DNA of 64,000 nt from a virus. Lineage: Duplodnaviria > Heunggongvirae > Uroviricota > Caudoviricetes. The stretch is taken from the IMG/VR virus record IMGVR_UViG_3300005528_000049; one strand, 5' to 3'. Below are positions 10,262 through 60,239 of the stretch, piece after piece. The notes below the pieces were generated by a model, which saw only the letters and a list, made by a program, of their open reading frames with translations, made no database searches and was not told where the DNA came from. Each line of letters starts with the position of its first letter. Position 1 is the first letter of the stretch. The position numbers and the translations under genes are program-made.

Positions 10262-10618
10262 ATGTGTAATAGTTTGTTTAAAGCTGCTAAGGCAGGCACA
10301 TATCAAAGAGTTACCTATCCACACTTAGTAAAAGTAATTCCTTTAAAAAATAGCTTGCAAGATTTAGATTTATTAGCCAAATCTATAGCATATACTCTAG
10401 TCACTCCATATAACCAAAGAGTAGATTTTCACTGGAGATTACTTAGTAGATTTATATGTAATACAGAAGAAAATTATATATCACTTGTTTTTAAGTCGCC
10501 TAATAATCTGAAAGATTTAAAGGTAACCTATATACATAATTTAGATGATCTTAAGTTGTTTCCTTCTCTAAGAGATAAGGTTTTAAGTAATTTATTACAA
10601 ATTATAAGAGATGAATAA
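10262..10618 (+). CDS. hypothetical protein
   Basis: 118-aa ORF. Confidence 0.45.
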   Translation: MCNSLFKAAKAGTYQRVTYPHLVKVIPLKNSLQDLDLLAKSIAYTLVTPYNQRVDFHWRLLSRFICNTEENYISLVFKSPNNLKDLKVTYIHNLDDLKLFPSLRDKVLSNLLQIIRDE

Positions 10619-34034: not shown

Positions 34035-36889
34035 TCACTCCTAGCTACATAACTGAAATAACCAGCTAATGTTTTACCTACATCAGCAGTAGAACATAAT
34101 ATTAAACCATTTCTATATACAATTACTTGTCCAGTTGTAAGAGATGCTTGAGTAGGAATTGTTTCTACAGTTTCTCTAAAAATACCTGTAATAGGTGTTC
34201 CATCTATAGTAAATCTCATTAAGTTTGGAGCATATTCTGGTAATATTGAATGCCATAAAGCATTTTCTGTTGTAGCAGAAACTGCACTACTTAATCCTAA
34301 GTTTCCTGGTGCTCCATCAACTACTACTCCATAATTATTAGGGGCTGTAATTATAGTTGGAGTTAATGTTACTTTTTCAAAATAGGGTTGTATATATGCT
34401 GTTATATTCTCAATATATAAAGATGTATCATTTGTTTTCATAAAACCTTGACATACATATTGATCATATACTTCATTAGCTACAAATGATGTTCCAGTTG
34501 CAGTATTTTCAAATCTAACATTTATTCCATCAATTAAATCTATAAAAGAACTACTAGTAGTTCTAGTATCACTTCCAGTTGTATCAGTGAAATCTCCTGT
34601 ATTATTGTTATAAGTTACAGAAGGAATCCAGTTAGTACCATTCCATTTATACCAAATCCAACTAGATAAAGTATTACTACTTCCAGTTGTAAGATAATTT
34701 GAACTAACTGTATCTGCTAAAACTATACCATTAGGTAATGACACTCTTTTAATATGCATTCTAGGATATTTTGTATTTTCATTATAACTTCCAACAGAAG
34801 CTCCTGTACTACTTAACTGTATGTTTCCATTAGCATTATTAGATACAAAATTACCCCAATAATCCTGTGCAACACAAGCATTTCCAAATAAGTTAGTCGT
34901 ATTTATTGTTCCATCTAATTGTCTATATGATTCAGTTCCATACTGAGGTAATAAATTTAATTGTGATAAATCTCCTGGATTCTGTCTAATAATAGTACTA
35001 CTGTTAAAGGATAATAAAGTGCCATCACCACTCCATAATCTATTATCACTTCCTTTAGACCAAGCATAATTAGCTTGATGTTCTCCCACATATATTTGTA
35101 CTGTTGTTATATTATTAGCACTTGAGCCCCCAGCTAAACTCCACCAATATACTCTAGCTCCTCTTAATCCATTAGTAACTGTATTATCTCTAACACAGAT
35201 AGCCATCCTAGTATCAGCATGTATTTTATTAATATGTATATTAAGCCAATTAGAAGTTGTTAAAGCAACAGTTGTAAAGTTTAAATTAGTAGTATAACTA
35301 CTAGCAGAACTAGTTAAAGTTAGAGCAGTTGTAGCTAAATTCATAAAAGCATAAACTACTCCATTAACATTAACATCAACTGCATATGTAGGGGTTGTTG
35401 ATTCTTGTGTTATAACAGGACTGTTTATGTTTGTTATATTAATTTTCCATAATCCAGTAACAGAATCAGCAACATAAATTAAGTTTCTTGCTTGATCTAA
35501 TGCAAACTGTCTAAATTGTGTAATAGATAATGTAAATGGAGAAGGTCTTGTACTGTCAAAATCCCAATGTTGACCTGTAAATTGATTAATTATACTAAGT
35601 CCATTTTGATCTGCTTGTACTGTTAAATAGTTATCCCAAGCAATAATAGGTGCTACATATTGCCAACCATGACAATTAGGATAAGGTTGTAATGCAGCAT
35701 ATATATATGGATGAAATGATGTACCAGATCCACTATAAGTAAAATTTGCATCAGCAGAATGTCCTCCAAATCTTTTAACTCCAAGTACAAATTTTGCAGT
35801 TCCAACAGGGCCTCCTTCAGTTATTCTTATTCTATATATAGAAGGCCATTTTTCAGTCCATGGATCTTCTGAAAACTGTAAAACACCTGTTCCACTAGGA
35901 TTATTATCAGGTATAAACATGCCAGCTAAATCATCTCTAGGATTTGCACTATAAGCAAAAGCTGACTGCAAATTAGAACTGGAAGTTACATTATTTAAAG
36001 TTGTATGTTTATGAGCTGAAAAAGTATTTCCAGGATCTGATTCTGGTCTGTTTCCTGTTGCAGTTTTTGTTGTAAAATTATTTCCACATAAATAACCATT
36101 AAATATTCTTCCATTTGAAAATCTAGAATTATTATTGTCTCTTGGTATAGTCCAATATTGTTTACATCTATAAAATAAAGTATTTTGATTCTGACCTGAT
36201 ATAAAAGTTCCAGATGCTGGTTGGCTAAAACCATCTGTGCTTCCTGTTCTACTAAGCCTATTACTTACAAACAACAACTGCCAGTTATATTCATCTAAAG
36301 AAGCTGGAACTACTGTGTTATATAAGAAGTTATATCTTTCAAATGTAGTATTAACTAATGCATCACAAACATCATTTATCCATCTTGGATATTTAATTAT
36401 AGAAACTCCAGGAACTGTTGCATTTTGTACTGTTACTCTATAAGTTAAATTTATAATTTGTTCTGCCTGTTGAGTACAAGGAGTATTAAGTAACAAATAT
36501 GCCCAAGGAGCTACTGTTGTATTTGCAACTTGACCTACACTAGATTGAGTTAATCCAACTGTTTGAAATGTTCTAGGAGTTACTACTGCATCTAACCTTT
36601 GTGTTATTACAAAATAAGGTGGATTAGCATTTTGAAAAGCTTGAATTGCAGGTTGTCCAGAACCTTGATAAGCGGTTCCACTACATTGAATTGATGTTTT
36701 AGATCTCACAGGAGTAGCAGTTTCTGTGCTTATAAATATATTTCTTCCTGCCCACTGAAATATATTATCATTCTTTACCATTTCAGTATAAGCAAAATTA
36801 GTAATTATATTATCTTGCTCTCTTTTTTCTATTACTTTGCCAGTAATTTCATCTACTATTTCTAAAGTTAAATGGCCTGATAATTTCAT
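34031..36889 (-). CDS. large structural protein (tail fibre / baseplate-associated candidate)
   Basis: 952 aa, Thr/Ser/Asn/Gly-rich beta-type composition, convergent with the replication module; no enzymatic motif seen. Confidence 0.6.
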   Translation of the reverse strand: MKLSGHLTLEIVDEITGKVIEKREQDNIITNFAYTEMVKNDNIFQWAGRNIFISTETATPVRSKTSIQCSGTAYQGSGQPAIQAFQNANPPYFVITQRLDAVVTPRTFQTVGLTQSSVGQVANTTVAPWAYLLLNTPCTQQAEQIINLTYRVTVQNATVPGVSIIKYPRWINDVCDALVNTTFERYNFLYNTVVPASLDEYNWQLLFVSNRLSRTGSTDGFSQPASGTFISGQNQNTLFYRCKQYWTIPRDNNNSRFSNGRIFNGYLCGNNFTTKTATGNRPESDPGNTFSAHKHTTLNNVTSSSNLQSAFAYSANPRDDLAGMFIPDNNPSGTGVLQFSEDPWTEKWPSIYRIRITEGGPVGTAKFVLGVKRFGGHSADANFTYSGSGTSFHPYIYAALQPYPNCHGWQYVAPIIAWDNYLTVQADQNGLSIINQFTGQHWDFDSTRPSPFTLSITQFRQFALDQARNLIYVADSVTGLWKINITNINSPVITQESTTPTYAVDVNVNGVVYAFMNLATTALTLTSSASSYTTNLNFTTVALTTSNWLNIHINKIHADTRMAICVRDNTVTNGLRGARVYWWSLAGGSSANNITTVQIYVGEHQANYAWSKGSDNRLWSGDGTLLSFNSSTIIRQNPGDLSQLNLLPQYGTESYRQLDGTINTTNLFGNACVAQDYWGNFVSNNANGNIQLSSTGASVGSYNENTKYPRMHIKRVSLPNGIVLADTVSSNYLTTGSSNTLSSWIWYKWNGTNWIPSVTYNNNTGDFTDTTGSDTRTTSSSFIDLIDGINVRFENTATGTSFVANEVYDQYVCQGFMKTNDTSLYIENITAYIQPYFEKVTLTPTIITAPNNYGVVVDGAPGNLGLSSAVSATTENALWHSILPEYAPNLMRFTIDGTPITGIFRETVETIPTQASLTTGQVIVYRNGLILCSTADVGKTLAGYFSYVARSD

Positions 36890-36898
36890 TTATTTGTT

Positions 36899-37870
36899 TT
36901 ATCCTATAATTATTGAAGTGAAAGGTATCCTATTAAATGATAAATAAGAAGCGCCTTTATTAAAATTACTACTGCTTATATTATCATTATTATCTGATAA
37001 GTTTTGTACTGTAAAAGGTACCCTATTAAATGATAATAAAGAGCCACCTTTATTAAAATTACTACTACTACTTATATCTTCTAAGTTAAATATGTTTTGT
37101 ACTGTAAAAGGTACTCTATTAAATGTTAATAAAGAAGCGCCCTTATTAAAAGTTTTAGCATATTCATCAGCTATATAATTAGGGTAAGACATTAATATTT
37201 GCTGATTACTGCCTTCTAATTCTTGAGATAATACTTTAATGTCTAACCATCTTTTTATAAAAGTATAGTTAGTATTAACATTTAAATTAAGTCTAGTGTC
37301 AGGCGTTGTTAAGTCTGTTATTGATTTAAATACTGATACAGAAGTTGTATTGTTATTTGAGTCTATTACATCAATAAATTGTGCAAATGTATTTCTATAA
37401 GTGTAATTTACACTGTTTAATCTAATTCCTGTTGTTTGATTATTATTAGTATATTGTATAACTTGAGGACCATCTGGAGGATAGGGTGCTAAAGTTATAG
37501 TGATAGGATCATTTAATGTATTGTTATAAGCTAATAAAGAACCTCCTTTACTAAAATTATTAATGTTATCAACTAATAAAGGAACGATATCTACAAATTT
37601 GTAATTATTAGTGTCTCCATTTAAAGTTACTCTAAGTCTAATATTACTTTGTATATTATTTGGAATAATAATAATTACATTTTTACTTGTGTTATTTGGA
37701 ATTATAGTTACAGGATCTGTTAGGGGATTAGGCTCTATTTGCTCCCATAAATAAGTAGTTGCATTAGATACAGGAGATAAAGTAGCCGTTATGGGACTGC
37801 CACATAATACATACTGTGGTTCTAAAAACCAATCAGATTGATATGTTGGAAAGAATAAATATCTTTTCAC
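36899..37870 (-). CDS. structural protein with three C-terminal tandem repeats
   Basis: 323 aa; repeats (S)SSNFNKG(G/A)S(L/Y)LSFNR(V/I)PFT(V/S)QN three times in the C-terminal third. Confidence 0.55.
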   Translation of the reverse strand: MKRYLFFPTYQSDWFLEPQYVLCGSPITATLSPVSNATTYLWEQIEPNPLTDPVTIIPNNTSKNVIIIIPNNIQSNIRLRVTLNGDTNNYKFVDIVPLLVDNINNFSKGGSLLAYNNTLNDPITITLAPYPPDGPQVIQYTNNNQTTGIRLNSVNYTYRNTFAQFIDVIDSNNNTTSVSVFKSITDLTTPDTRLNLNVNTNYTFIKRWLDIKVLSQELEGSNQQILMSYPNYIADEYAKTFNKGASLLTFNRVPFTVQNIFNLEDISSSSNFNKGGSLLSFNRVPFTVQNLSDNNDNISSSNFNKGASYLSFNRIPFTSIIIG

Positions 37871-37925
37871 TTTTGTTCTAATTTAATATATACTCTACAG
37901 TATTAACAATATGTAAAGTATTTGT

Positions 37926-38447
37926 ATGCAATCTAGTAATAAAATTGTTAAAGATAATAACAAGTATGTAATAAGTTTAGATCCTGGTTTAGAAGGTGCC
38001 TTGTGCCTTTATAATTTGACTACAGATAAAGTAATAGAAGTTCTTAATACTCCTACTTATAAAAAAGATAAAAAGACTTGGCTACATGGTAAAAACATAT
38101 ATACTAAACTACAAGAATGGAGTTTATTAACTAATAAAGTTATTATTGAAACTCAAACTATAATGAGTGGTAGAGATGGTACTAAATCAGCAAAAACCAC
38201 TATGAAAAACTTTGGAATGTTGTTGGGAATATTGTCTACATTAGATTTTGAAATAATTGAAGTTGAACCTAGAGTTTGGCAATCAATAGTTCTTAAAAAT
38301 GTTATTGATCCAGGATTGCCTCTTAAACTTAAACCAACAAAAAGAAAGAGTATGGTATTAACAAGAGATTTTAATCCTAAAAATGATGGGCAAGCAGATG
38401 CAATAGCAATTGCTCTATACTATAAAACTCTTTTAACTAAAAATTAA
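37926..38447 (+). CDS. RuvC-like Holliday junction resolvase
   Basis: ISLDPGLEGALCLYN (RuvC motif I DPG...G); C-terminal DGQADAIAIALYY matches the RuvC catalytic Asp followed by the AxAIA..H/Y motif. Confidence 0.7.
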   Translation: MQSSNKIVKDNNKYVISLDPGLEGALCLYNLTTDKVIEVLNTPTYKKDKKTWLHGKNIYTKLQEWSLLTNKVIIETQTIMSGRDGTKSAKTTMKNFGMLLGILSTLDFEIIEVEPRVWQSIVLKNVIDPGLPLKLKPTKRKSMVLTRDFNPKNDGQADAIAIALYYKTLLTKN

Positions 38448-38504
38448 AAGAGTTTTATATTAATAGTTATAGACATAAAATAACCTTATAAATCCTTATA
38501 AATA

Positions 38505-39299
38505 ATGAAGTTAATAAGACTAGATACAATAAAAAATAAAATTAATCAGTTTCCTATTAAAGCATCTGTTTTTTTACGTCTGAAAAAACAAATAACTTTA
38601 GAAGAAATTGATGGAGTTTTATTTTGTCTCAATGTAAAATTAAAGGATCATGTTTTAGATCATGATTTTTGTAGAGATGTTTATAATGTATTGCTAAAAG
38701 TAAGATTAGATAATAATTATTATTTTATGCAAAACTCAGAGGCTCAATATTATACATATTCAGCTCCTTTTACAATGTCTATAGAAGAGTATATAAAAAT
38801 AACTAGCAAGTCATTTTATAAAGGACTTGTTACAAAGGATCAAGTTAAAGTGTTAGATTATCTTCTACCTGATTCTATTTTTAATAACATATATACAGCA
38901 GATGGTGACTTGACATTTGAAATAAATAAAGAATGTCTTTATTTATTTGTTAGATTAATGCCATATTCTGAATCAGATTTAACTGGCTTAATTATGTTTC
39001 TTAATACTGATCTAGTATATATGATCAGTGAAAGAAATAATAAGGAGAAATGTTCTAGTCTAGGCTTTATAATTAAATTAAAAGATAGATATCTCTTAAA
39101 AGATTTTAAATATAGCCCTGAGGATACTTGGTCACCCTTAAACTTAAATCCACATATTAGATATAAAATTAAAAAACAATTTATAAATGATAAGTTGTTT
39201 GACAATGTATCTTTTAAATACAGTGTAGAGTATAGTTTATTATATATAAATGACAATACTTTGTTAGATAAATATGATTTAAAAGTATTAGACATTTAA
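38505..39299 (+). CDS. hypothetical protein
   Basis: 264-aa ORF. Confidence 0.5.
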   Translation: MKLIRLDTIKNKINQFPIKASVFLRLKKQITLEEIDGVLFCLNVKLKDHVLDHDFCRDVYNVLLKVRLDNNYYFMQNSEAQYYTYSAPFTMSIEEYIKITSKSFYKGLVTKDQVKVLDYLLPDSIFNNIYTADGDLTFEINKECLYLFVRLMPYSESDLTGLIMFLNTDLVYMISERNNKEKCSSLGFIIKLKDRYLLKDFKYSPEDTWSPLNLNPHIRYKIKKQFINDKLFDNVSFKYSVEYSLLYINDNTLLDKYDLKVLDI

Positions 39300-40009: not shown

Positions 40010-43000
40010 ATGTTAGTTGAATTTGAGTTAAATAAAGAAGAACAAGATATTAAACCTGACTTTGGTCCTGTAGGTTCTATTGTTGATATTAGAACATATA
40101 GAAGATGGCTGCCAAATAAAAAAAGAAGAGAGACATTTGTAGAAAGAAATGCAAGAGTAGTAGATGCTAATTTAGACCTTGTTAAAGATATTATTAGTGA
40201 TCAAGAGTATGAGTTAGAAAGATCTACTATGATGGATCATATGAATAAATTACTAGCTCTGCCTTCTGGTAGAAGTATGTGGATTGCAGGCACTGAAGCT
40301 AATAAAAAACATCCTGCTTCATCCTTCAATTGTTCAGCTTTAGCTATTAATAGAATAGAAGCTTTTACAACTGTATTTGAACTGTTAATGCTTGGTACTG
40401 GTGTTGGATTTAGAGTGTTTGGCTCTGATATTAATGAGCTGTCAAATATTAAGAAGTTTGATATATTGTTTGATTCTTATAACCCAAAGCCTAAACATGA
40501 GAGAATTGAAAGTACCATTGTAAGTTATTCTAAGAATGCAACTATTGTACAGGTTGGGGATAGTAGAGAAGGATGGATACATGCTTTACACGCTCTCTTA
40601 GAAATAGCTTTTTGTATAAATAAAGATACGTCTATCTCATTTAATTTTGATTCTGTTAGACCATTAGGTGAGAGAATTAATGGTTTTGGTGGCACGGCTA
40701 GTGGTCATGAAGCATTAAAGAATTTGCTTAAAGATGTCTTTGATATCTTTAATGAATGTCCGGATAGTAAGCTTAGAAGTATTGATTGTTTAGATATTTG
40801 TTGTGCTATTGCTAAGGGTGTTGTAGCTGGTAATACTAGAAGATCTGCATTACTTTGTCTCTTTGAAGAAGGTGATGACCTAATGGCCAATGCTAAGGTA
40901 AACCTATTTGATGATCCTACTTTAAAGGGTAAGTATTATAGAATTCAAAGTAATAATACTGAAGCATTAGGCACCCCTTATTTATCTGAATTAAGAGAGT
41001 TTCTAGAAGCCAATCCAGATGTTTCTAAAGAAGATTTATTCAAGTTTATTGATAAGTACAAACCTTCTGTTGAATGGTTAAAAGAAAGATTTAAAGTAAT
41101 TGCTAATGCTGGTGATCCAGGCTTTGCTAACTATTTGAAGATGGTTGGTAAGAAGTGGTTAGCTGTTAGAAAGCACAGACCTGATTTTGATGTTAAGAAA
41201 ATCTGGGAATATTTTTGTGATATTTGTACGAACCCATGCCACGAAATAATTTTGTCTGTAGGTTATAAAGATGGTAAAGGAACTGGATTTTGCAATTTAA
41301 CAACTCTTCCAATTAATAAATTTGTTATTAAAAAATGTAATAATAATGATTTATGTGCAGTTACTGGTTATAAGCTAGATGAGAAAGCTTTAGAACAAGC
41401 TATTAAACTTACAGTTAGAATAGCTACAAGACAAACCTTTGTTACTATGCCTAGAGCTGAACTAGATGATACTCAGAAAGCTGAAAGATTGTTGGGAGTG
41501 TCAGTCACTGGTTGGATTCAATTATTTAATAAACTAGATTTGTCTTATACAGAACAAGAAGACTTAATGACTAAGTTAAATGACTGGGCTAATGATGAAG
41601 CAACTACATATGCTAATAAGTTAGGTATTGAAAGACCCTTAATGGTGTGTTGTATTAAACCAGAGGGGTGCGGAAAAATTTCACATATAAGAACAACAAC
41701 TGAAGGTTTATTAAGAGTTGATGAGATCGGAGATGTATCTAAATTAGGTTTTAATAAAGTTGATACAAACAATACAACAACTAAAGGATTTTCTATTAGA
41801 AGTGTATATAATAACGGCTTATCTAAAGTTGTAAAAATTAAACTAAACAATGGAAGAGAATTAGTATTTACACTCCAACATCCTTTTAGTGTAAATGGTT
41901 TATGGAAAAATGCTGTTAATTTAAAGAAAGGCGATGTATTAGATATTGAATTAGATACTTATAATAAAGTAACTAATGAATTACTAGCAAATTACAGTGC
42001 TAAATATAATCATTTAAGAAAAGAAGATTTATTATTTCCTAAAGAAATAACTAATGATTTATCTTGGTGGGTTGCTAGTGTATTTGCTAATGGTAGTGTA
42101 ACTAATCATGCAATTAGTTTCTATTCAGGATATATAGAAGTAGTACAAAAGTTTGTTGATTTAAGCAATAGTTTATTTAATATTTCTACTGTTGCTACAA
42201 AAGATAAAATAAAAGATATGTATAGGGTAAATATTAATTCTACAGATTTAGTTGAATATTTAAAGCTTAATGGTTTATTAAAGACAAAAAACTTTACTAT
42301 TCCTCTTATTATTAGAAGATCTAGTAGAGAAGCTTTACTATCTTTTATTTGTGGTTATTTAGATAATGATGGCTGCTTTAAAAACAAAGGATGTAGTATT
42401 ACTACAAAGAATGAAAACTTTGCAAGAATGTTACAAGAAGTTGGAGAAGCAGTAGGGCTATCATTTAGTTGTTATGATTATACAAGAGAAACAACTAAAA
42501 GTATTGGCATTTATTATGACTTACAGTTAAGTAGAACTTATTCAACTAATAGAGCTATTGATTTTATTAACAGTAATAGTATTAAAGCTAAATTAAATGG
42601 CTTTATTATTTCAAGTGATAAGAGTCATAAAAATCCTTATAAGGTTGATAGTGTTGAAGTATTAGAAGAGTTAATTAACACTTATGATATAGAAGTAGAT
42701 GATCCTCATTGGTATTATCAAGGTGGTATTAAATCGCATAATACTGGCTCTAAAGTATTAGGCTCTTCTAGTGGAGTTCATTGGGATTGGGCACCTTATT
42801 ATATTAATAGAATTCAAATGGGCGCTAATGATGCTCTTGCTAAGACATTAAAAGATCAGGGCTTTAGCTGGATTCCAACTCCTTATGATTTACTTAAACT
42901 ATATAATGATCAAGTTGAAGTGTTTAGTAATAATAATGTTATTAGATTATTTCAAAGGTTATTAGTTAGGTTTAATATTACTAAATCAAAATATGAGCCA

Positions 43001-43531
43001 AAGTTTAAAGATGTTTGGAGTAGAATTGAACACTTTAGATCTCTAACTGATAAGGATAAACAAGAAGCCTTTAACAATTCTAATGCAGTTTTATTTGAGT
43101 TTCCTGTTAACTCTGGTATGGTTGAATCTCAAGGTAGTGTAAGTGCTAGTAGACAGTTGCAAAATGTACTTAGATTTACTGATTGTTATGTTGATCATAT
43201 GGTGTCTTCTACTATTACAGCTAAAGAAGATGAATGGGATAACTTAGCAGAAGAGTTACATCAAGAAAAGAATTGGTTTAGATTTATTAATGCGGCCTTC
43301 TTATCTTATTACAGTGGTAATCATCCTCTTCTTCCTAATGAAGAAATAACAGAAGAAGTCTATAACAAGATGATGTCTTCTTTCAAGCAGTCTGAGTGGG
43401 TTAAAGATGGCAAGTTCTATGTCAATGAAGATCTATTAGCTAAATTAGAACAAGCAGCTTTAAGAGCTAATGTTGATATTGATGATGTTGATTTAGGTGC
43501 TTCTTGTCAAGGGGCATGTCCCGTCCGTTAA
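40010..43531 (+). CDS. nrdJ: ribonucleotide reductase, class II (adenosylcobalamin-dependent, NrdJ-like) containing an intein
   Basis: active-site motif ICTNPCHEIILS (TNPCxEI, class II form); no adjacent NrdB-like gene; C-terminal Cys pair SCQGACPV; 1173 aa including an in-frame 358-aa intein. Confidence 0.75.
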   Translation: MLVEFELNKEEQDIKPDFGPVGSIVDIRTYRRWLPNKKRRETFVERNARVVDANLDLVKDIISDQEYELERSTMMDHMNKLLALPSGRSMWIAGTEANKKHPASSFNCSALAINRIEAFTTVFELLMLGTGVGFRVFGSDINELSNIKKFDILFDSYNPKPKHERIESTIVSYSKNATIVQVGDSREGWIHALHALLEIAFCINKDTSISFNFDSVRPLGERINGFGGTASGHEALKNLLKDVFDIFNECPDSKLRSIDCLDICCAIAKGVVAGNTRRSALLCLFEEGDDLMANAKVNLFDDPTLKGKYYRIQSNNTEALGTPYLSELREFLEANPDVSKEDLFKFIDKYKPSVEWLKERFKVIANAGDPGFANYLKMVGKKWLAVRKHRPDFDVKKIWEYFCDICTNPCHEIILSVGYKDGKGTGFCNLTTLPINKFVIKKCNNNDLCAVTGYKLDEKALEQAIKLTVRIATRQTFVTMPRAELDDTQKAERLLGVSVTGWIQLFNKLDLSYTEQEDLMTKLNDWANDEATTYANKLGIERPLMVCCIKPEGCGKISHIRTTTEGLLRVDEIGDVSKLGFNKVDTNNTTTKGFSIRSVYNNGLSKVVKIKLNNGRELVFTLQHPFSVNGLWKNAVNLKKGDVLDIELDTYNKVTNELLANYSAKYNHLRKEDLLFPKEITNDLSWWVASVFANGSVTNHAISFYSGYIEVVQKFVDLSNSLFNISTVATKDKIKDMYRVNINSTDLVEYLKLNGLLKTKNFTIPLIIRRSSREALLSFICGYLDNDGCFKNKGCSITTKNENFARMLQEVGEAVGLSFSCYDYTRETTKSIGIYYDLQLSRTYSTNRAIDFINSNSIKAKLNGFIISSDKSHKNPYKVDSVEVLEELINTYDIEVDDPHWYYQGGIKSHNTGSKVLGSSSGVHWDWAPYYINRIQMGANDALAKTLKDQGFSWIPTPYDLLKLYNDQVEVFSNNNVIRLFQRLLVRFNITKSKYEPKFKDVWSRIEHFRSLTDKDKQEAFNNSNAVLFEFPVNSGMVESQGSVSASRQLQNVLRFTDCYVDHMVSSTITAKEDEWDNLAEELHQEKNWFRFINAAFLSYYSGNHPLLPNEEITEEVYNKMMSSFKQSEWVKDGKFYVNEDLLAKLEQAALRANVDIDDVDLGASCQGACPVR
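41669..42742 (+). mobile_element. intein with LAGLIDADG homing endonuclease inside the RNR ORF
   Basis: Begins with Cys after KPEG (CGKISHI..., block A); block B TLQHPF; LAGLIDADG motifs WWVASVFANGSV and CGYLDNDGCF; block F YDIEVDDPHWYYQGG; block G IKSHN followed by Thr; the excised extein would read CIKPEG/TGSKV. Confidence 0.7.
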
Positions 43532-44898: not shown

Positions 44899-45156
44899 TT
44901 GCTAACTCTTGATGAAGTAATTGATAGTTTCTTACATAGAGAACTTGTAGATGGTCAAACCTTAATTGACTTTCTTAAAGAGGGTACTAAGGTACCTCTT
45001 GTTGATTTTCATAAAAATATAAAGTTTCTTAATGCACTTAAAACAATGGCGGATAAAGAAGCTGCCACAAGAAGAATGAGTAAAGGTAGTGGCAAAAACT
45101 TAAGGTCTTTACAAAATGTTTTTAGTGAGTTTAGTACACCAATAAATTATGACTAA
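44899..45156 (+). CDS. hypothetical protein
   Basis: 85-aa ORF. Confidence 0.4.
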   Translation: MLTLDEVIDSFLHRELVDGQTLIDFLKEGTKVPLVDFHKNIKFLNALKTMADKEAATRRMSKGSGKNLRSLQNVFSEFSTPINYD

Positions 45157-45814
45157 GTTAAAAGCGCCAAGAATATATCATCTACCTTGGTCTGAAGTAT
45201 TAAGTAAGGATGATAAGTTTATTAGATCAACTAATATATTTAAAGATAAAGAGGTTATTGTTACTTTAAAATTTGATGGTGAGAATACTTCTTTGTACAA
45301 CGATGGAACATTTCATGCTAAGTCTTTAGATAGTAAAGCACATGAGTCTAGAGACTGGTTACATATTTGGTGGAGAGAAAAACTATATACTAGTAATTAT
45401 TTGTTGTTGCATGGTAAGTTGCCTGATTTAAGATTAGTTGGTGAAAATATGAAAGGCTTTCATACAATCCAATATAATAACTTAGAAGCTTTGTTTCTAT
45501 TACATAGCGCATGGAATGGCACCACATGTTTGTCATGGGAAGAAACACTTAATATAGCTTTTATATTAAATATAAAAACTCCACCTGTATTGTATAAAGG
45601 TGTTTATAATGAAGCAGCTATAAAGGAATTAAACAACTTAGAAAAGTATAATGATGATTTAGTTGAAGGCTATGTCATTAGAAATGCTGGTGAATTTGAC
45701 TATAAAGATTCAATAAACAATGTTGCTAAATTTGTATCTAGCAGGTTTGAAATTAAAGGCGATCACTGGTCTAAAGGTAAAATAACTTTTAATAAAACTA
45801 AATATGAAATATAG
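45149..45814 (+). CDS. ATP-dependent RNA/DNA ligase-like nucleotidyltransferase
   Basis: covalent nucleotidyltransferase motif I KFDGENTSL (KxDG); short (221 aa) as in the phage RNA_ligase-family proteins. Confidence 0.45.
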   Translation: MTKLKAPRIYHLPWSEVLSKDDKFIRSTNIFKDKEVIVTLKFDGENTSLYNDGTFHAKSLDSKAHESRDWLHIWWREKLYTSNYLLLHGKLPDLRLVGENMKGFHTIQYNNLEALFLLHSAWNGTTCLSWEETLNIAFILNIKTPPVLYKGVYNEAAIKELNNLEKYNDDLVEGYVIRNAGEFDYKDSINNVAKFVSSRFEIKGDHWSKGKITFNKTKYEI

Positions 45815-46097
45815 ATATAATTGTTATACAAGAAAGATTGGAGATAGAGAAGAAAAATATTACTGTATTGAGTACAATAAAACTGATGGAGACTATGACT
45901 CAGATTGGTTTGAATTAGAAGACTTTACTGAGGACATGTGTAAAGATGTAGCTGAACTATTAAATGCTAAATATGCTTCAGAGCCTTATTATAAATATAA
46001 AAAGTCTAATAATGCTTATGTTTATGTAAAGGGTATATGTAAAGGTATAAATGAAAGAATAGCAGCTTTAGATCCTATAGATCCTAAAGATTTATAA
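45804..46097 (+). CDS. hypothetical protein
   Basis: 97-aa ORF. Confidence 0.4.
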   Translation: MKYRYNCYTRKIGDREEKYYCIEYNKTDGDYDSDWFELEDFTEDMCKDVAELLNAKYASEPYYKYKKSNNAYVYVKGICKGINERIAALDPIDPKDL

Positions 46098-51433: not shown

Positions 51434-52207
51434 ATGAGATTTCAACCTCTTAGTGATATTCATTTAGAGTTTTATAAAGATAGTAGTACTGTAAAAATAA
51501 AAGATACTGATAGTGACTGTATTATTTTAGCTGGTGATATACATACTAAAACAAGAGCTATTAAATGGTTGTTAGATCAAAAGATTAATAAGCCAATATT
51601 TTATATATGTGGTAATCATGAGTTTTATGGAACTAACTGGCCTAGAAATATAGATAAGTTAAAAGAAGCTGCCAAAGACACAAATATACATGTATTAGAA
51701 AATGATTATTATATTTTTAAAGATTGGATAATCTTAGGCTGTACTTTGTGGACAGATTATAAATTATTAGAACCTATTGTTCCTCAACAATTAGCAATGT
51801 CTGCTTGTTTTAAAGGAATGAATGATTTTTATAAAATTAGAAATAGTAATTTTGGCTATAAAAAGATTATACCCTCTGATTTATTACATGCTCATTATGA
51901 ATCTGTTGATTTTTTAAAGACATACTTAGAAGTATTTAATGGATGTAATATAGCTGTATTAACACATCATACTCCTTCTATAAAATGTATTGATCCTACA
52001 TATCATAAAGATATTTTAAGTGCCGCTTATGCTTCTAACTTAGATGAGTTTGTTGCTTATAGTGGGGCTAAGATTTGGTTTACAGGTCATACTCATTATA
52101 AGTATAAAAAGTTTATGCTTGGAGACACATTATTGGTATCTAATCCAATGGGTTATTTAAATTATATTAATGAAGATTTTGATCCTAAACAAGTAGAAGA
52201 AGTGTAA
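51434..52207 (+). CDS. calcineurin-like metallophosphoesterase
   Basis: ordered MPP motifs LSDIHLE (DxH), ILAGDIHT (GD), ICGNHEFY (GNHE), LTHHTP, FTGHTHY (GHxH). Confidence 0.7.
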   Translation: MRFQPLSDIHLEFYKDSSTVKIKDTDSDCIILAGDIHTKTRAIKWLLDQKINKPIFYICGNHEFYGTNWPRNIDKLKEAAKDTNIHVLENDYYIFKDWIILGCTLWTDYKLLEPIVPQQLAMSACFKGMNDFYKIRNSNFGYKKIIPSDLLHAHYESVDFLKTYLEVFNGCNIAVLTHHTPSIKCIDPTYHKDILSAAYASNLDEFVAYSGAKIWFTGHTHYKYKKFMLGDTLLVSNPMGYLNYINEDFDPKQVEEV

Positions 52208-54476: not shown

Positions 54477-55208
54477 TTACTTTTTCTTTTTATAATCAAC
54501 TTCTAATTTAATACATCTTTTTTTTACAGCATTATCACTTACATCAAATATCTTTCCTATATAAACCATAGGATATTTATCTACTAATTCTTGTAGTTCT
54601 TCTTTTGTAACTTCAAATTTTAAAGGACGTGAAAAGTTTACTTTATTATTTATCTTAGAGCATTTACCACATCTTGTAGATTTTATATGTATATTACAGT
54701 TACAATCTACACATTTGTTTTGAATGATCTCTTTTCTTCTTCCTCTACCAGCATAAGTTTCTGTTTGAGTGTGACAGTTAGGACATAAGAATCTAAGATT
54801 TTCTAATCTATTATCACTATTAATTCCATTAATATGATCTAATTGAAGAACTAATTCTTGATTATTCCAATGTCCAGGGTTATTACAAATAGAACATTTA
54901 TATTTTAATAGATTTTCTTTTACTAATCTTCTTTTTAGATCTTGTCTGCTATATGTGGAATTTTCTACTAATATTTTATCTAAATCAAGAGCATTAATCC
55001 CTCCAAAAGATTTTGCTTTTCTATTTTTATTTAACTTGTCTAAAGATAAACTATCTTCTTTTATTCTATTGTTTAATTCTTTGTAATTATTTCCATGAAG
55101 AGACATATCAATTTTTAAAAGAACTTCAGCTAAAGTATTACAGCTATTTAATATATCTTGTAATTTATCTTTATCTAATTTCCAAATTGTATTATGCATA
55201 CTTTTCAT
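54477..55208 (-). CDS. HNH endonuclease
   Basis: LVLQLDHINGINSDNRLENLRFLCPNCH (canonical HNH His-Asn-His with Cys zinc ligands); extra Cys-rich zinc-ribbon segments. Confidence 0.75.
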   Translation of the reverse strand: MKSMHNTIWKLDKDKLQDILNSCNTLAEVLLKIDMSLHGNNYKELNNRIKEDSLSLDKLNKNRKAKSFGGINALDLDKILVENSTYSRQDLKRRLVKENLLKYKCSICNNPGHWNNQELVLQLDHINGINSDNRLENLRFLCPNCHTQTETYAGRGRRKEIIQNKCVDCNCNIHIKSTRCGKCSKINNKVNFSRPLKFEVTKEELQELVDKYPMVYIGKIFDVSDNAVKKRCIKLEVDYKKKK

Positions 55209-55841: not shown

Positions 55842-56160
55842 TATATAAAAATATCTTTATCAGATCCAACGCTAGTGCAAGACTAGGGGTTTAGTAAAGT
55901 GGATGGTTTACTTGTAATTTGTCAGCCATAAAGTCCGGCCCTATTGGTATAAAGATATATGAAGTACAGCAAAGGTTTAGGGTTTTAACAAAGTATATTT
56001 GTGGCCTGTTAATGTGATGGCTGGAACTTCTAAAACTAGAACCTATAAAGAATAGGAACAGCTATTAGATGGTGAACTTGGCAAGCCTTTTGTATTTAAA
56101 CAGAATAAAACTGTTTGTAATGCAGAAGAAAGATTTACATCTGTTTGGAATTATTAATAT

Positions 56161-56370
56161 ATGGACCCAATCTCTATAGGAGTTGCTATGTTTATTGGTT
56201 GTTTGTTTTTTAAAACACAGCAAGATATGTTTATTGAGGAACAAAAGAAGTCTGCTTCTAAACCACAACAACAGACTTCTTCTCAACAACAAAGAAAACC
56301 ACCACAAACAAATAAGACTATTACTAAATGTCCTCATTGTGGTGGTAGTTTAGATAATGAAAAAGATTAA
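56161..56370 (+). CDS. small protein with N-terminal hydrophobic segment and C-terminal CxxC
   Basis: 69 aa: MDPISIGVAMFIGCLFF..., Gln-rich linker, CPHCGG; competes with the antisense ORF 56065..56337. Confidence 0.3.
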   Translation: MDPISIGVAMFIGCLFFKTQQDMFIEEQKKSASKPQQQTSSQQQRKPPQTNKTITKCPHCGGSLDNEKD

Positions 56371-56371
56371 T

Positions 56372-56914
56372 TTAAGGGCTTAGTTTTTTAAGATATTTGG
56401 CTACTGTTTTATCTGAAACACCTAAATATTCTGCAACTGCTAATTTAGTTTTTAATTTAGAATATAAATCTAATAAATCAATAGATTCCCAATCTAATTT
56501 CTTTTTACTTTGTTGAGAACATTTTGTAGAACAATATTTATGAGATTTTAATTTTGTATTATTACATAAAGGACATTTATCATAATATTGCTTAAACTTA
56601 TAATCCGCAAATTCTTCATTGAATGAAGTAAATATATTAGGTAAAATAGCTTTATCATTATGTATTTCTCTATGACAATTAGAACAAAGCAATATGCATT
56701 TTCTAAGTTCTTTTATAACTGTTTCCCAGGAACCACAGTTTGCTCTAAGTTTACTTAAACTATGTTCTTTTTCATTTGGATCTATATGATGTAATTCTAA
56801 AGCCTCATGACATTTATTGTAACTACATATTTGACAACAGCCTCCCATAGATTCTACAATTCTAGATTTAGAATTCTTTCTCCAGTTTTTTACTTGTTCA
56901 GATTTTATAGTCAT
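56372..56914 (-). CDS. HNH endonuclease
   Basis: ALELHHIDPNEKEHSLSKLRANC...LLCSNCHREIHN (HNH with CxxC zinc ligands); additional zinc-ribbon Cys pairs. Confidence 0.7.
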   Translation of the reverse strand: MTIKSEQVKNWRKNSKSRIVESMGGCCQICSYNKCHEALELHHIDPNEKEHSLSKLRANCGSWETVIKELRKCILLCSNCHREIHNDKAILPNIFTSFNEEFADYKFKQYYDKCPLCNNTKLKSHKYCSTKCSQQSKKKLDWESIDLLDLYSKLKTKLAVAEYLGVSDKTVAKYLKKLSP

Positions 56915-57037
56915 ATATTTATCTGTACTTGTATTAATACAATAACAAATAATGTTATTAAAATGTATTCAGATTCATATAATACAAATCTTTGACAAGT
57001 GTTTATTATTAATATATAATAAACACTATAAATATAA

Positions 57038-57174
57038 TGTTTAGTAGCTCAGTTGGTAGAGCGTCTGACTGTGGCTTTTTAGTTTAATGTAAAACTATAG
57101 TTAACTATATTATAGGTTCAATTCCTATAAAGGTCTTAATCAGAATGTCCCTGGTTCGATTCCAGGCTAGACAG
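57038..57174 (+). tRNA. tRNA gene interrupted by a ~64-nt insertion in the anticodon loop (anticodon GTG/His if inserted after position 37; alternatives possible)
   Basis: acceptor tgtttag/ctagaca (7 bp, one G.U); canonical D arm TA-GCTC-AGTTGGTA-GAGC; anticodon stem tctga (57064-68) pairs with tcaga (57140-44), separated by 71 nt; variable loop atgtc; canonical T arm cctgg-TTCGATT-ccagg; the insertion itself contains a T-arm-like hairpin tatagg-ttcaatt-cctata. Confidence 0.6.
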
Positions 57175-57256
57175 TTGCTATTAAAACAATAGCAAACAAA
57201 CAACTAACTATAAAGGAGGTAACTGTGTTACTAGATATTATAATTGGTTAAAACAA

Positions 57257-57414
57257 ATAGTAGTGGTGGAAAGATATACACTCATATCATGCGTTAGGTT
57301 GTGGTCCTAAAGAAGCAGTAAAATGAAAGATGATTGACAAGTGTACATAGTTAATTAGATCGCATGTGGTATGGATTGGGCACAAGTATAGGGTTAAATT
57401 CCCTACCTACTATT
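57257..57414 (+). tRNA. ~160-nt tRNA-like element (perfect 7-bp acceptor, T arm, long interior)
   Basis: acceptor atagtag/ctactat 7/7; T arm taggg-TTAAATT-cccta; 5' side continues tggtgg as in the 55319/55431 family; interior not foldable by eye. Confidence 0.25.
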
Positions 57415-57626
57415 TCTCTTAAACATGTAGTAATAGATATACAAATATATATATATATGATTTTATAGAAGCTTCTATGAGTATGGCTGACTATAACATT
57501 GAGTATTATACTATTAACTCTCATAGAGTATAATGCAGATTCAATAAGAAAGTGTTAACTATACCATATTTAGTCCTCTTTCTTATATATCCCTTTGTAT
57601 ATTACTACATGTTTATTTTTCTACAA

Positions 57627-57699
57627 TCTGGAAACGTCTAACGGTCTGACAGCACACTTTGACTGTGTACAATTGGAGGTTCAAATCCTTCTTCCAGAG
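57627..57699 (+). tRNA. tRNA-Gln (anticodon TTG)
   Basis: acceptor tctggaa/ttccaga 7/7; anticodon arm gcaca-cuuugac-tgtgt (U33, UUG, A37); T arm ggagg-TTCAAAT-ccttc; D arm short and non-standard (positions 8-9 = AC). Confidence 0.55.
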
Positions 57700-57991
57700 T
57701 AGTTATTTATATATAACAAGGAGGTTATTATGTCAGATATGGAATATTAATAAAACTATGATAAAAGTAGATCTTAAATTTAATAAAGAGAGTGACGGTC
57801 AACATAGTTATATACTATCTTTTACTTCTGATAAGAATAAAGATAAATATGCTGACATTGAGTTTGTTAATGATGGTGAAATATTAACAGGTAAAACAGA
57901 TAGGATTAATCCTTCTGAAATTAAAACTATTACAACAGAATCTTTGTTTGATGTATTAGAAGATTTAATTAAATTTATGAATAAAGATTAA
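57659..57991 (+). CDS. hypothetical protein
   Basis: 110-aa ORF; its 5' end overlaps the predicted tRNA-Gln, so the real start is probably the internal Met (MIKVDLKF...). Confidence 0.35.
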   Translation: MTVYNWRFKSFFQSSYLYITRRLLCQIWNINKTMIKVDLKFNKESDGQHSYILSFTSDKNKDKYADIEFVNDGEILTGKTDRINPSEIKTITTESLFDVLEDLIKFMNKD

Positions 57992-58236
57992 TGAAATTAA
58001 AGTATTTTTTTATTCTCTTTATCCGACTCTTTATAGTAGTCGGATTTTTAATGACTATTATTTATTTGTTAGCCCTTGCAACTAAATTGATAATAGGTAG
58101 TAATTTAATGATTATTGCTGGCATATGTTTATATGTTGTATGTGTAGGGTTGATAGTTATCTTTTTAGAGGTAGCTAAAGACTTTTGGGTATTCTTGTGT
58201 AAATTTATTAGGCGGATGTTTAACTTGTATGATTAA
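57991..58236 (+). CDS. small membrane protein
   Basis: 81 aa with two predicted hydrophobic helices. Confidence 0.45.
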   Translation: MKLKYFFILFIRLFIVVGFLMTIIYLLALATKLIIGSNLMIIAGICLYVVCVGLIVIFLEVAKDFWVFLCKFIRRMFNLYD

Positions 58237-59092
58237 TAAAAAAGTAGTTATTCCTTTTTTTGCTGGTCTTGTTGGAGTTGTTAGTGTTGCTTGTGGTTCA
58301 GTTCCTGAACCTGGAGAAACAGTATTAAAAGTATATAAAGCTGGTGATAATGCTGGGTTTGAAAAAGCAGAAATTGTTACTGGAAACTATGGAAATGACT
58401 TGAATGTAGTATATTACAAAATTAATAATAAGATTGTTAATTATGTTTATACTAATAGTATGACAGAAGGTAGAGCAGCAGATGAATCTATTAAATTTAG
58501 AACATCTGATGGTTTTGTAATGAGTTCTAATATAGGCATCTCTTATATTATTGTAGATCCTAAAAAGTTTCTATCTGTGCAGAAGATGGAAGATGAAAGC
58601 TTAACATTAGGGCCTCTATATATCCTACTTAGAGATAAAGTAAATAGTATTGGTAATACTTATTCCTTGAATGATCTAATTGCTATTCCTGGTCAAACTA
58701 ATAAGCTTAATAACACTTCAAAAACTCTTGCTGATTTCCAAGCAAATGTTCTAAAACAATTGAATGAAGAAACAGCTAAATATGGTGTTAAGGTACTTAG
58801 TGTTACTTTTGTAAATGGTTTTACTCCTCCTAAAGAAATTGCTGAGCAGGTTCTAAATAGTCAAATGCAGCTCATTGAGACTCAAAAACAGACTAGCCTT
58901 TCTCAAACTAAAGCAACTCAGTATGAAAGTGAATTGAGGGCTGCTAATGCTAAACTTCAACTAGCAAAGATTGAGGCGGAAACAAGAAAGCTTGATTCAG
59001 TTGGTGTAACTAATGAATATGTAACTCTGCAAGTCATTGCTCTTCTTAAAGAGAAGTGGAATGGCAGCTTTGTTATTATTGATGGTAAGTAA
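58229..59092 (+). CDS. putative lipoprotein / secreted protein with C-terminal coiled coil
   Basis: N-terminal signal sequence ending ...VVSVACGS; C-terminal QTSLSQTKATQYESELRAANAKLQLAKIEAETRKL. Confidence 0.5.
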   Translation: MINKKVVIPFFAGLVGVVSVACGSVPEPGETVLKVYKAGDNAGFEKAEIVTGNYGNDLNVVYYKINNKIVNYVYTNSMTEGRAADESIKFRTSDGFVMSSNIGISYIIVDPKKFLSVQKMEDESLTLGPLYILLRDKVNSIGNTYSLNDLIAIPGQTNKLNNTSKTLADFQANVLKQLNEETAKYGVKVLSVTFVNGFTPPKEIAEQVLNSQMQLIETQKQTSLSQTKATQYESELRAANAKLQLAKIEAETRKLDSVGVTNEYVTLQVIALLKEKWNGSFVIIDGK

Positions 59093-60030: not shown

Positions 60031-60114
60031 GGGTGAGTATCCAAGTGGCTAAAGGGCGCTAACTGTAAAATCAGTTGATTTTTATCTTCATAGGTTTGAC
60101 TCCTATCTTGCCCA
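60031..60114 (+). tRNA. type II (long variable arm) tRNA with atypical anticodon loop; identity uncertain (Leu-TAA or Tyr-GTA)
   Basis: acceptor gggtgag/cttgccc (two G.U); T arm atagg-TTTGACT-cctat; variable arm gat-tttt-atc; anticodon stem aactg/cagtt encloses only 6 nt (taaaat), or 8 nt with a 4-bp stem. Confidence 0.5.
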
Positions 60115-60144: not shown

Positions 60145-60206
60145 GCCCTAGTAGCATAGTGGTCAAATGCGCCTACCTTGTAAGTAGGAGATATCTGATC
60201 TAGGGC
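60145..60206 (+). ncRNA. 62-nt T-arm-less tRNA-like element, anticodon GTA (Tyr-type), followed by a U-run
   Basis: acceptor gccctag/ctagggc 7/7; perfect D arm gcat-agtggtcaa-atgc; perfect anticodon arm cctac-cuuGUAa-gtagg (U33, A37); only 11 nt (agatatctgat) where variable loop plus T arm should be; followed by tttttt, so the acceptor helix plus U-run could also act as a terminator. Confidence 0.35.
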
Positions 60207-60239
60207 TTTTTTATTTAAATAAATAAGAATAAATTTAAT

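Follow-up and report, generated by a model that had tools for sequence, protein, structure and literature searches.

A tRNA-like insert in the anticodon loop of a phage tRNA-Asn(GUU) gene suggests a protein-dependent route of tRNA splicing

In textbooks the tRNA introns of bacteria and their phages are self-splicing group I elements, and short tRNA introns that are spliced by proteins are considered a trait of archaea and eukaryotes. The locus described here raises the question of how to read a phage tRNA gene whose anticodon loop is interrupted by 64 nt. It lies in the window, by which we mean the whole 64-kb stretch of DNA that was analysed (64,000 nt). The window derives from an uncultured, AT-rich phage that encodes PolA, a RecA-like protein, a primase, helicases and an RNR with an intein, and for which no close cultured relative was found.

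Read directly from the sequence, positions 57,038–57,174 (+ strand) hold a complete tRNA that is interrupted by 64 nt (57,073–57,136). The 5' exon (57,038–57,072, + strand) is recognized in the sequence and by ARAGORN with introns allowed (-i), and its design is common to 138 related genes. It consists of the acceptor strand TGTTTAG (57,038–57,044), the D arm (57,047–57,062; GCTC-AGTTGGTA-GAGC), the anticodon stem strand TCTGA (57,064–57,068) and the loop nucleotides C32, U33, G34 and U35 (CTGT, 57,069–57,072). The 3' exon (57,137–57,174, + strand), which is defined by the sequence and by the fold of the spliced 73-nt product, continues with U36, A37 and A38 (TAA, 57,137–57,139) and the anticodon stem strand TCAGA (57,140–57,144). 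These are followed by the variable loop ATGTC, the T arm (57,150–57,166; CCTGG-TTCGATT-CCAGG), the acceptor strand CTAGACA (57,167–57,173) and the discriminator G (57,174). CCA is not encoded, and it is absent from seven of the eight tRNA genes in the window. All seven acceptor pairs and all five anticodon stem pairs can form. With default settings ARAGORN does not report the split gene; when introns are allowed, it returns a single 137-nt tRNA with a 64-nt intron. In the minimum free energy (MFE) fold of the whole interrupted gene, one cloverleaf sits inside another (-35 kcal/mol, z=-2.4). Sequence, ARAGORN and fold thus agree with the original prediction of a canonical tRNA that is split in its anticodon loop by an insert of about 64 nt.

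Removing the insert leaves the 7-nt loop CUGU|UAA with U33, the anticodon GUU and A37, and the spliced 73-nt sequence folds into a clean cloverleaf with the loop CUGUUAA and the discriminator G73, as expected of a tRNA-Asn(GUU). Moreover, the variable loop AUGUC and the discriminator G agree with tRNA-Asn, intact phage tRNA-Asn genes such as L001 have an identical anticodon arm, and the BLAST matches to the exons carry tRNA-Asn annotation. Because of these features the outer gene is, as judged from its sequence, a tRNA-Asn(GUU) gene, and neither a tRNA-His nor a tRNA-Lys gene. CUGU|UAA is the sole junction that gives a canonical loop, and it matches both the ends of the inner cloverleaf described below and the junction in 137 related genes. 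The anticodon GTG (His), which had been predicted for a splice site after position 37, does not hold up against this. The junction chosen by ARAGORN, which yields the anticodon CTT (Lys), was likewise rejected: it fits neither the inner cloverleaf ends, nor the variable loop and discriminator of a tRNA-Asn, nor the 137 related genes. Owing to a repeated T the position of the junction has an ambiguity of 1 nt, so that 57,072/57,135 is equally possible. tRNA scans of the 64-kb window found no other tRNA-Asn gene and no second copy of the insert.

The insert itself (57,073–57,136, + strand) resembles a tRNA. Rfam model RF00005 matches its entire length with 43.1 bits (gathering score 29; E=3e-7; model positions 1–71), ARAGORN calls it a tRNA at a lowered threshold, and its helices covary across 20 related inserts. 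Its acceptor stem pairs 57,073–57,079 with 57,129–57,135 over 7 bp (GGCUUUU/AAAGGUC, beginning with G1-C72). It is followed by a D arm (57,082–57,095), a short hairpin (TATAG-TTAA-CTATA, 57,096–57,109) and a T arm (57,112–57,128; AUAGG-UUCAAUU-CCUAU), which is stacked directly on the acceptor stem, and it ends with the discriminator U (57,136). The hairpin in the place of an anticodon arm has a 5-bp stem and a 4-nt loop, and thus lacks the 7-nt loop, the U33 and the readable anticodon that decoding would demand. In related inserts this arm has a loop of 4–6 nt or is absent altogether. The ends of the mimic are flush with the junctions, the first inserted base being base 1 of the mimic and the last its discriminator. 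The T-arm-like hairpin that had been noticed in the insert is indeed present, but this description was incomplete, since all 64 nt form a cloverleaf, and it missed the flush ends.

None of the known intron designs fits this structure. In region 56,000–58,500 neither group I, nor group II, nor any other intron or ribozyme family in Rfam gave a match at E<=10. A group I intron was rejected because the insert is 64 nt long, matches no model and ends in U57136, and because its relatives end in U, A or G without a rule and have no omega-G. This bears out the original judgement that a group I intron would have to be much longer than this insert. The archaeal and eukaryal bulge-helix-bulge motif has a 4-bp helix with a 3-nt bulge on each side, and it is processed by a splicing endonuclease together with RtcB or Trl1. 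Introns of this type resemble the one in the window in that they are short and sit in the anticodon loop, and they share with it the removal by proteins and a ligase that we propose below. The window, however, has neither the 3-nt bulges nor the 4-bp helix. A single nucleotide, U57136, separates the inner acceptor from the 3' exon, which forbids a central helix of 4 bp, and in the MFE fold this place is taken by a small internal loop. The search for the motif that had been suggested for the predicted junctions thus came back negative. To our knowledge, the hosts of these phages are bacteria, which have no splicing endonuclease. An RNase III-type junction and a K-turn were also considered and rejected, as the geometry does not fit either of them.

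If the insert has a function, its design should be found elsewhere. We searched with a pattern made up of a D arm, CTGT not followed by T, a gap of 44–73 nt, TAA and a T arm. In IMG/VR it retrieved 31 loci, and the anticodon stem, whose complementarity the pattern does not require, is complementary at 5/5 positions in 30 of them and at 4/5 in the remaining one. The identical pattern found at least 119 loci in metagenomes, and 28 genome contigs. Among the 181 matches listed, 138 combine a fully paired anticodon stem with six or more of the seven acceptor pairs; together they contain 88 distinct inserts. Chance can be excluded because the architecture recurs in 138 independent matches with 5/5 anticodon stems that the search did not ask for. 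The interrupted design recurs in related tRNA genes, and in all 138 phage and metagenome tRNA-Asn genes among the matches listed the site of interruption is 35/36. Also among these matches, 55 of the 88 distinct inserts are tRNA mimics of the form acceptor 7, T arm 5-7-5 and tail, with at least nine of 12 pairs, a level reached by 9% of shuffled sequences. The other inserts are mostly GC-rich, come from archaeal MAGs and form at most eight of 12 pairs; a few are of the Lak type that is discussed below. The GC-rich introns, which the archaeal MAG contigs matching our pattern carry at the same place, are presumably bulge-helix-bulge introns, and by failing the mimic test (<=8/12) they differ from the insert in the window.

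The structure of the mimics was confirmed using RNAalifold, which is independent of the pairing parse. For 20 cloverleaf-type inserts it recovers the acceptor, D and T stems, with compensatory changes in 13 of 15 pairs, and for 21 minimal inserts of 45–54 nt the acceptor and T stems, with compensatory changes in all 11 pairs. In the alignment of the cloverleaf type 95.6% of the cells are paired, compared to 65% in shuffled and 34–50% in slid controls. With 0.91, a value that none of 500 shuffles reached, the covariation score likewise exceeds the 0.30 obtained after shuffling. All 55 mimics among the matches listed share U at position -1, a T loop TTCRANT and a 12-bp stack of acceptor and T stem, and 52 of them have G at +1. 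The 10–39 nt between the 5' strand of the acceptor and the T arm, in contrast, have no common sequence, and in 37 of the 55 the first acceptor pair is a G1.A72 mismatch. Across the family the length of the insert varies from 45 to 74 nt. The outer genes of these 55 mimics are just as constrained: their anticodon stem occurs in 27 versions, all of them complementary, the discriminator is G in 54, and the two loop halves add up to CUGU and UAA. Since the outer stems and the processing-relevant features of the inner element are both conserved, selection thus acts on the outer tRNA as well as on the shape of the inner one. We conclude from these comparisons that a phage tRNA-Asn gene is interrupted here by a real intervening sequence, which is conserved and under structural constraint.

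The design is found in other isotypes, too. A scan of the distance between D arm and T arm, combined with a structural filter, identified similar inserts in tRNA-Lys(UUU), tRNA-Arg(UCU), tRNA-Ile(UAU) and tRNA-Gln(UUG) genes, at sites ranging from 33/34 to 36/37. Their loop pieces again total 7 nt and their junctions again coincide with the ends of the mimic. Since this is so at various sites of the loop, the cut sites would follow the intron rather than a fixed position in the outer tRNA. Other search strategies were less productive. ARAGORN -i, run over all loci, returned mostly chimeras of adjacent tRNAs, which is why the structural filter was applied. A pattern that lacked the D-arm anchor (CTGTV-N-TAA...GGTTCRANTCC) was dominated by chance occurrences of CTGT upstream and gave one true match among the matches listed. 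The exact anticodon-stem pattern found L006 only, a locus that has retained a second, intact tRNA-Asn gene. No relatives were found by way of the neighbouring SPFH protein, and 39 concatenated introns gave no BLAST match among cultured phages at E<=1e-3.

The 3' end of the mimics follows a rule. Their tail is bimodal in length: in one group, to which the window belongs, it is exactly 1 nt long and always U, and in the other it measures exactly 4 nt. Tails of the longer kind read NCCA in full cloverleafs, and are purine-rich (ARRN, such as AAAG, AAGA and similar) in the minimal forms. All 19 outer genes that contain a mimic with a 1-nt tail are CCA-less, whereas CCA is encoded in 23 of the 36 with a 4-nt tail, including all eight with an NCCA tail (Fisher p=1.4e-6 for the 55 mimics among the matches listed). 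The 3' end of the intron therefore copies the local mode of tRNA 3'-end formation. A possible pairing of the tail with C32–U35 in the 4-nt class was discarded as weak, as complementarity is usual at positions 73 and 75 only and 26 of 28 cases have a mismatch at G34.

The only precedent that we found in the literature, where our searches met with no account of a mechanism for a tRNA-like intron, are the short "enigmatic introns" in the tRNAs of Lak megaphages (Devoto et al., 2019, Nat Microbiol; PMC6784885). These introns, 79–141 nt long, interrupt Tyr, Thr, Gly and Phe tRNAs, and the authors noted that the one in tRNA-Thr "may itself encode a tRNA", without proposing a structural rule, a distribution or a mechanism (PMC6784885). 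When we compared the sequences in their Table S6, all were found to contain the module of acceptor and T arm. They also have a 5' hairpin, one strand of which repeats the loop sequence of the exon, an A-rich linker and a tail of 2–3 nt. The same variant is found in L254, L410, L474 and L495. Lak introns thus resemble the insert in the window in being short inserts in the anticodon loop of a large-phage tRNA with an acceptor/T-arm module, and Lak-A/C share the ligase family described below. They differ by the extra 5' hairpin and linker, whereas the insert in the window is a bare mimic, flush at both ends, in a tRNA-Asn. It therefore represents a minimal variant of barely characterised short introns in large-phage tRNAs. 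The suggestion that it is a new kind of phage tRNA intervening sequence has to be qualified accordingly: the Lak introns were reported before (PMC6784885), but a mechanism was not described for them.

Taken as a whole, the locus belongs to a widespread family of short phage tRNA introns whose sole conserved features are the recognition elements of end-processing enzymes. RNase P recognizes the stack of acceptor and T stem together with the T loop and favours G at +1 and U at -1, and RNase Z cuts CCA-less precursors after N73. Both enzymes leave 3'-OH and 5'-phosphate ends, which are the substrates of ATP-dependent ligases. The insert in the window has all these features, namely contiguous helices of 7 and 5 bp, the T loop TTCAATT, G57073 at +1 and U57072 at -1 for a predicted cleavage by RNase P, and U73 followed by UAA in the absence of CCA for a predicted cleavage by RNase Z. 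This match between conserved features and enzyme determinants is the reason why we propose excision by RNase P and RNase Z. We put forward, with a little less than even confidence, that the phage has here a functional tRNA-Asn(GUU) gene with a protein-dependent "tRNA-mimic" intron at 35/36, which would be excised by RNase P and RNase Z, whose exons would be sealed by a ligase, and which would shield the gene from an HNH endonuclease or be spread by it. The anatomy of the insert suggests a specific and so far undescribed splicing route. The precursor would fold into a cloverleaf within a cloverleaf. RNase P would cleave at U35|G57073, 5' of G+1 of the mimic, leaving a 3'-OH on the 5' exon, and RNase Z would cleave after the mimic discriminator U57136, so that U36 would carry a 5'-phosphate. 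The exon halves would stay paired as a nicked tRNA, until the 3'-OH/5'-P nick is closed by an ATP-dependent RNA ligase to give the CUGUUAA loop. The intron would thus be pared down to the parts that end processing recognizes: a 7-bp acceptor on a 5-bp T stem, a canonical T loop and a D arm. In the window, where the tail is 1 nt long and CCA is missing, every element of the model fits. Comparable signals are mitochondrial tRNA punctuation, the mascRNA of MALAT1 and synthetic tRNA-gRNA arrays, in which RNase P and RNase Z are brought to a longer transcript by a module with the shape of a tRNA. There the transcript is cut at both ends of the module, as we propose for the window, but the flanks are not re-joined, whereas those in the window are tRNA halves that would need ligation.

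A candidate for the sealing enzyme is encoded by the phage itself. About 11 kb upstream of the split tRNA, ORF 45,149–45,814 (+ strand) codes for a protein of 221 aa that matches the full Pfam profile PF09414 (RNA_ligase; E=1.2e-21) and comprises the adenylyltransferase domain only. It contains motif I (KFDGEN) as well as the motifs EN, EGYVIR and KFV, and K41, D43, G44, E99, N100, E173, G174 and K194 are invariant in the alignment of the family (A1). No informative match was obtained in PDB and NCBIfam. The ORF thus encodes a predicted ATP-dependent RNA ligase of the PF09414 (Rnl2-like) type, which may act on nicked tRNAs and would be the simplest choice for the last step of our model. Among about 530 loci only L466 and L377 have homologues, both with split tRNAs within 7 kb. 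Of 50,697 records of cultured or complete phages only 31 contain the family; these include Atu_ph07 and SCTP-2, both carriers of a split tRNA-Asn, and the Lak-A/C megaphages with their tRNA introns. In IMG/VR it has at least 473 matches. The split gene lies at 323,904–324,021 in Atu_ph07 (MF403008; host A. tumefaciens C58), whose ligase homologue is encoded at 66,519–67,163, and at 298,730–298,848 in SCTP-2 (MF360958; host Salicola PV4), and the predicted introns of these two phages measure 45–46 nt. XacN1 carries the ligase, and its first 50 kb show no tRNA-mimic intron. The link between ligase and split tRNA is correlative, and genome size may confound their co-occurrence. The RNA ligases of jumbo phages are generally seen as a means of repair against host anticodon nucleases (PMC7824862). 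As in the route proposed here, Pnkp and Rnl1 of phage T4 and the ligases of jumbo phages have an ATP-dependent phage enzyme seal a 3'-OH/5'-P break in the anticodon loop. In T4, however, the break stems from a host anticodon nuclease and its ends need healing, whereas in the window it would be programmed by the structure of the gene. Moreover, the T4 enzyme is Rnl1, as opposed to the 221-aa PF09414 (Rnl2-like) domain, and the scanned ORFs of the window encode no kinase. Among the options offered by the original prediction, the evidence favours processing by an endonuclease together with a possibly phage-encoded RNA ligase, in view of the PF09414 gene 11 kb upstream, but the splicing itself, its cut sites, the chemistry of the ends and each enzymatic step are what we infer.

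The second neighbour of interest is an HNH endonuclease gene (56,372–56,914, - strand), which lies 123 bp upstream of the split tRNA in divergent orientation. Its product of 180 aa (PHROG 35854, "HNH endonuclease", E=1e-31) contains CxxC...HH...CxxCH and a C-terminal helix-turn-helix and is a candidate free-standing homing endonuclease. The same family adjoins a split tRNA-Asn in ten other loci at a distance of 13–132 bp, and its density per base is about five-fold higher in split-tRNA loci than in other phage tRNA loci. An HNH ORF of any kind is found within 500 bp in about 8 of the 31 loci with adequate flanks. This arrangement is reminiscent of "collaborative homing", in which a free-standing endonuclease and an intron act together, as in psbA of cyanophages and with SegB in the tRNA cluster of T4. 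Common to both is an endonuclease gene adjoining a conserved gene, with an intron that interrupts the presumed target. In contrast to those cases, the intron in the window is not self-splicing, its HNH protein is a candidate, and HNH genes also adjoin intact tRNA-Asn genes, namely in S-WAM2 and IC12. A further parallel are the Patescibacteria, which have self-splicing group I (IA) introns of 184–894 nt at 35/36 of tRNA-Asn; HNH endonucleases are encoded by four of these introns (PMC13011429). The host gene, the site and the association with HNH endonucleases, in the window encoded by an adjacent gene, are the same, whereas the introns differ: ribozymes of 184–894 nt in one case, and in the other 64 nt without group I helices or a model match. 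These introns support the idea that 35/36 of tRNA-Asn is a homing target, which the phage mini-intron might protect. The idea is suggestive only, because of the HNH genes that flank intact tRNA-Asn genes. In our model the intron would likely either shield the phage from the adjacent HNH endonuclease by interrupting the 35/36 site, or be spread by it.

Three observations in the wider family are left unexplained by the proposed route. Cleavage by RNase Z after N73 does not account for the ARRN-type 4-nt tails of the minimal introns. In Lak-type introns as well as in L254, L410, L474 and L495 a hairpin and linker of 25–30 nt lie 5' of the mimic, so that RNase P alone cannot produce their 5' splice site, and the model gives no reason for the frequent G1.A72 mismatch. 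All three would be easier to reconcile with a genuine intron that is recognized by a dedicated endonuclease of the phage or its host, which reads the symmetric internal loop or the tRNA shape, followed by joining through RtcB or by healing and sealing. We regard this as rather unlikely. In its favour, the anticodon stem and the closing stem of the intron are separated by a small internal loop that contains both junctions, and the window encodes a calcineurin-type metallophosphoesterase (51,434–52,207), a fold seen in some modules that heal RNA ends. However, the ORFs of the window that were scanned yielded no domain of a splicing endonuclease, a polynucleotide kinase or RtcB, and apart from homing-type nucleases and lineage markers no conserved family of unknown proteins accompanies the split tRNAs from locus to locus. 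Moreover, such an enzyme does not predict the correlation between tail and encoded CCA or the flush tRNA-like ends.

The same recognition elements allow another reading, in which the halves are never re-joined. The inner tRNA-like RNA would then be the real product, serving as a decoy or cofactor, or the unspliced chimera would be a decoy for anticodon nucleases. tRNA-like RNAs that are freed by RNase P and RNase Z exist elsewhere, mascRNA being an example, the inner element is clearly under structural selection, and the intact tRNA-Asn gene of L006 is in line with such a role. Still, we find this improbable, since only the processing determinants are conserved and the middle 10–39 nt have no common sequence. 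In addition, the exons preserve all features of a tRNA-Asn, with 5/5 stems in all 27 versions, G in 54 of 55 and CUGU plus UAA, which a mere carrier would not need.

That the gene is dead, its tRNA-Asn having been inactivated by a small tRNA-derived mobile element, would suit a region rich in selfish elements, as indicated by its HNH genes and the intein. It is a very remote prospect, since among the matches listed there are 55 sequence-distinct inserts of one design with intact, co-varying outer and inner helices, and the window has neither another tRNA-Asn nor, as judged by tRNA scans, a second copy of the insert. The inactivating mini-insertion that the original prediction had considered is at odds with these 55 inserts, which lie in intact outer tRNAs with 27 complementary anticodon stems. 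Equally far-fetched is an intron that acts as a ribozyme, either as a miniature element resembling group I introns or as two small nucleolytic ribozymes. It is true that the tRNA introns so far known from bacteria and phages splice themselves and that those of Patescibacteria are group I introns at 35/36 (PMC13011429). Yet no ribozyme or intron family in Rfam matches at E<=10, 45–74 nt contrast with at least 184 nt for group I introns in tRNAs, the 3'-terminal base is U or variable instead of omega-G, and the helices that are conserved belong to a tRNA.

Returning to excision by RNase P and RNase Z, this might apply beyond the window. That large phages harbour an entire class of tRNA-mimic introns, which would require neither catalytic RNA nor a dedicated endonuclease, be excised in an RNase P/Z-type manner and joined by a phage ligase, and immunise the gene against HNH endonucleases, is a proposition that we advance more tentatively still. 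Should the pathway be true, it would constitute a new mode of intron removal that employs endogenous tRNA maturases and a ligase. It would also provide orphan phage RNA ligases with a physiological substrate and a constitutive role in splicing that goes beyond the repair of damage, and it would explain the "enigmatic" introns of Lak megaphages. Furthermore, it would reveal a co-evolution of selfish endonucleases and their targets at the tRNA anticodon, through which phages could immunise their tRNA genes against HNH enzymes. Because standard annotation misses split genes, as seen with default ARAGORN and in two sequenced phages, published tRNA repertoires of phages and the conclusions on codon usage and recoding drawn from them are incomplete. 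The phages in question, both of them cultured jumbo phages, are Agrobacterium phage Atu_ph07 and Salicola phage SCTP-2, in which BLAST identified a split tRNA-Asn that is unannotated in either genome; with these two phage-host pairs the splicing hypothesis is directly testable.

Split tRNA-Asn genes are also found in other phages, including cultured ones. The closest one lies on a phage contig (L006) that carries a second, intact tRNA-Asn at positions 12383-12453. On the same contig, a ROOL RNA (9856-10493; 255.9 bits in Rfam) is embedded in the tRNA array. Two cultured jumbo phages also have a split tRNA-Asn, Atu_ph07 at 4001-4118 of locus L532 (MF403008, 323904-324021) and SCTP-2 at 3001-3119 of L620 (MF360958, 298730-298848). 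Neither of the two genes is annotated in the corresponding GenBank record, and the published tRNA counts for both phages are therefore probably too low.

The tRNA-mimic insert, which folds like a tRNA lacking an anticodon, occurs in a tRNA of another identity as well. A type II tRNA-Leu(CAA) that ARAGORN -i reports on a metagenome contig (L453, JAEIGA010134240.1) contains such an insert, with an additional 'GT' ahead of it and 'TC' behind it. The arrangement gives the impression that an Asn-type intron was transferred along with flanking CTGT exon bases. The insert could reflect ectopic transposition with co-conversion, or else it could be a non-functional copy.

A third class of introns comprises those of four comparison loci (L410, L474, L254 and L495) and the Lak phage introns listed in Table S6 of PMC6784885. 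Their elements follow in the order 5' hairpin, A-rich linker, minimal tRNA mimic and a tail of 2-3 nt. The 5' strand of the hairpin, ACAG, is complementary to exon positions C32-U35, and its 3' strand repeats CUGU. The hairpin is reminiscent of an internal guide or of an element for alternative pairing.

Introns at the apparent position 35/36 are also present in tRNA-Asn genes of archaeal MAGs assigned to Thermoproteota, Nitrososphaerota, Methanomethylicia and Methanosarcinales (genome contigs L504-L531; examples are L505, L507, L511, L515 and L527). These introns are GC-rich and 46-64 nt long, and they do not fit the tRNA-mimic model. Presumably, they are bulge-helix-bulge introns at a non-canonical position.

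Two further tRNA-like genes in the window, neither of which is called by ARAGORN, are located on the plus strand. In the first one (60145-60207, 63 nt, Thr(UGU); Rfam tRNA, 46.3 bits), the acceptor stem, the D arm and the anticodon arm, whose loop is CUUGUAA, are normal, and a 3-bp mini-hairpin, AUC-U-GAU, takes the place of the T arm. The second one (60031-60114, 84 nt) is Tyr-like (GUA), with a long variable arm and the loop CUGUAAA, and its score of 29.9 bits lies exactly at the Rfam threshold.

Selfish elements have colonised the window phage heavily, as shown by an intein containing a LAGLIDADG endonuclease domain, which splits the ribonucleotide reductase gene (40010-43531, plus strand), and by three HNH genes (21805-22506, 54477-55208 and 56372-56914). 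Moreover, a gene for a calcineurin-like metallophosphoesterase (51434-52207, plus strand) is situated between the RNA ligase gene and the tRNA region. Some RNA repair enzymes use the calcineurin-like fold as their module for 2',3'-phosphate healing, and by this analogy the protein could be one of a set that acts in RNA repair or splicing.

Both the window and the Xanthomonas jumbo phage XacN1 (L621) encode an SPFH/Band 7 protein within the tRNA gene region (58229-59092, plus strand, and 31115-32026, respectively), and the two phages also share the RNA-ligase family. Long variable arms are normally restricted to Leu, Ser and Tyr tRNAs. In XacN1, such arms account for the length of 86-91 nt of the tRNAs for Lys (30565-30651), Gly (39053-39138), Thr (42569-42659), Cys (45202-45290) and Asn (45979-46067). 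Finally, the XacN1 gap at 36560-39053, which lacks annotation, contains more odd tRNA-like predictions.
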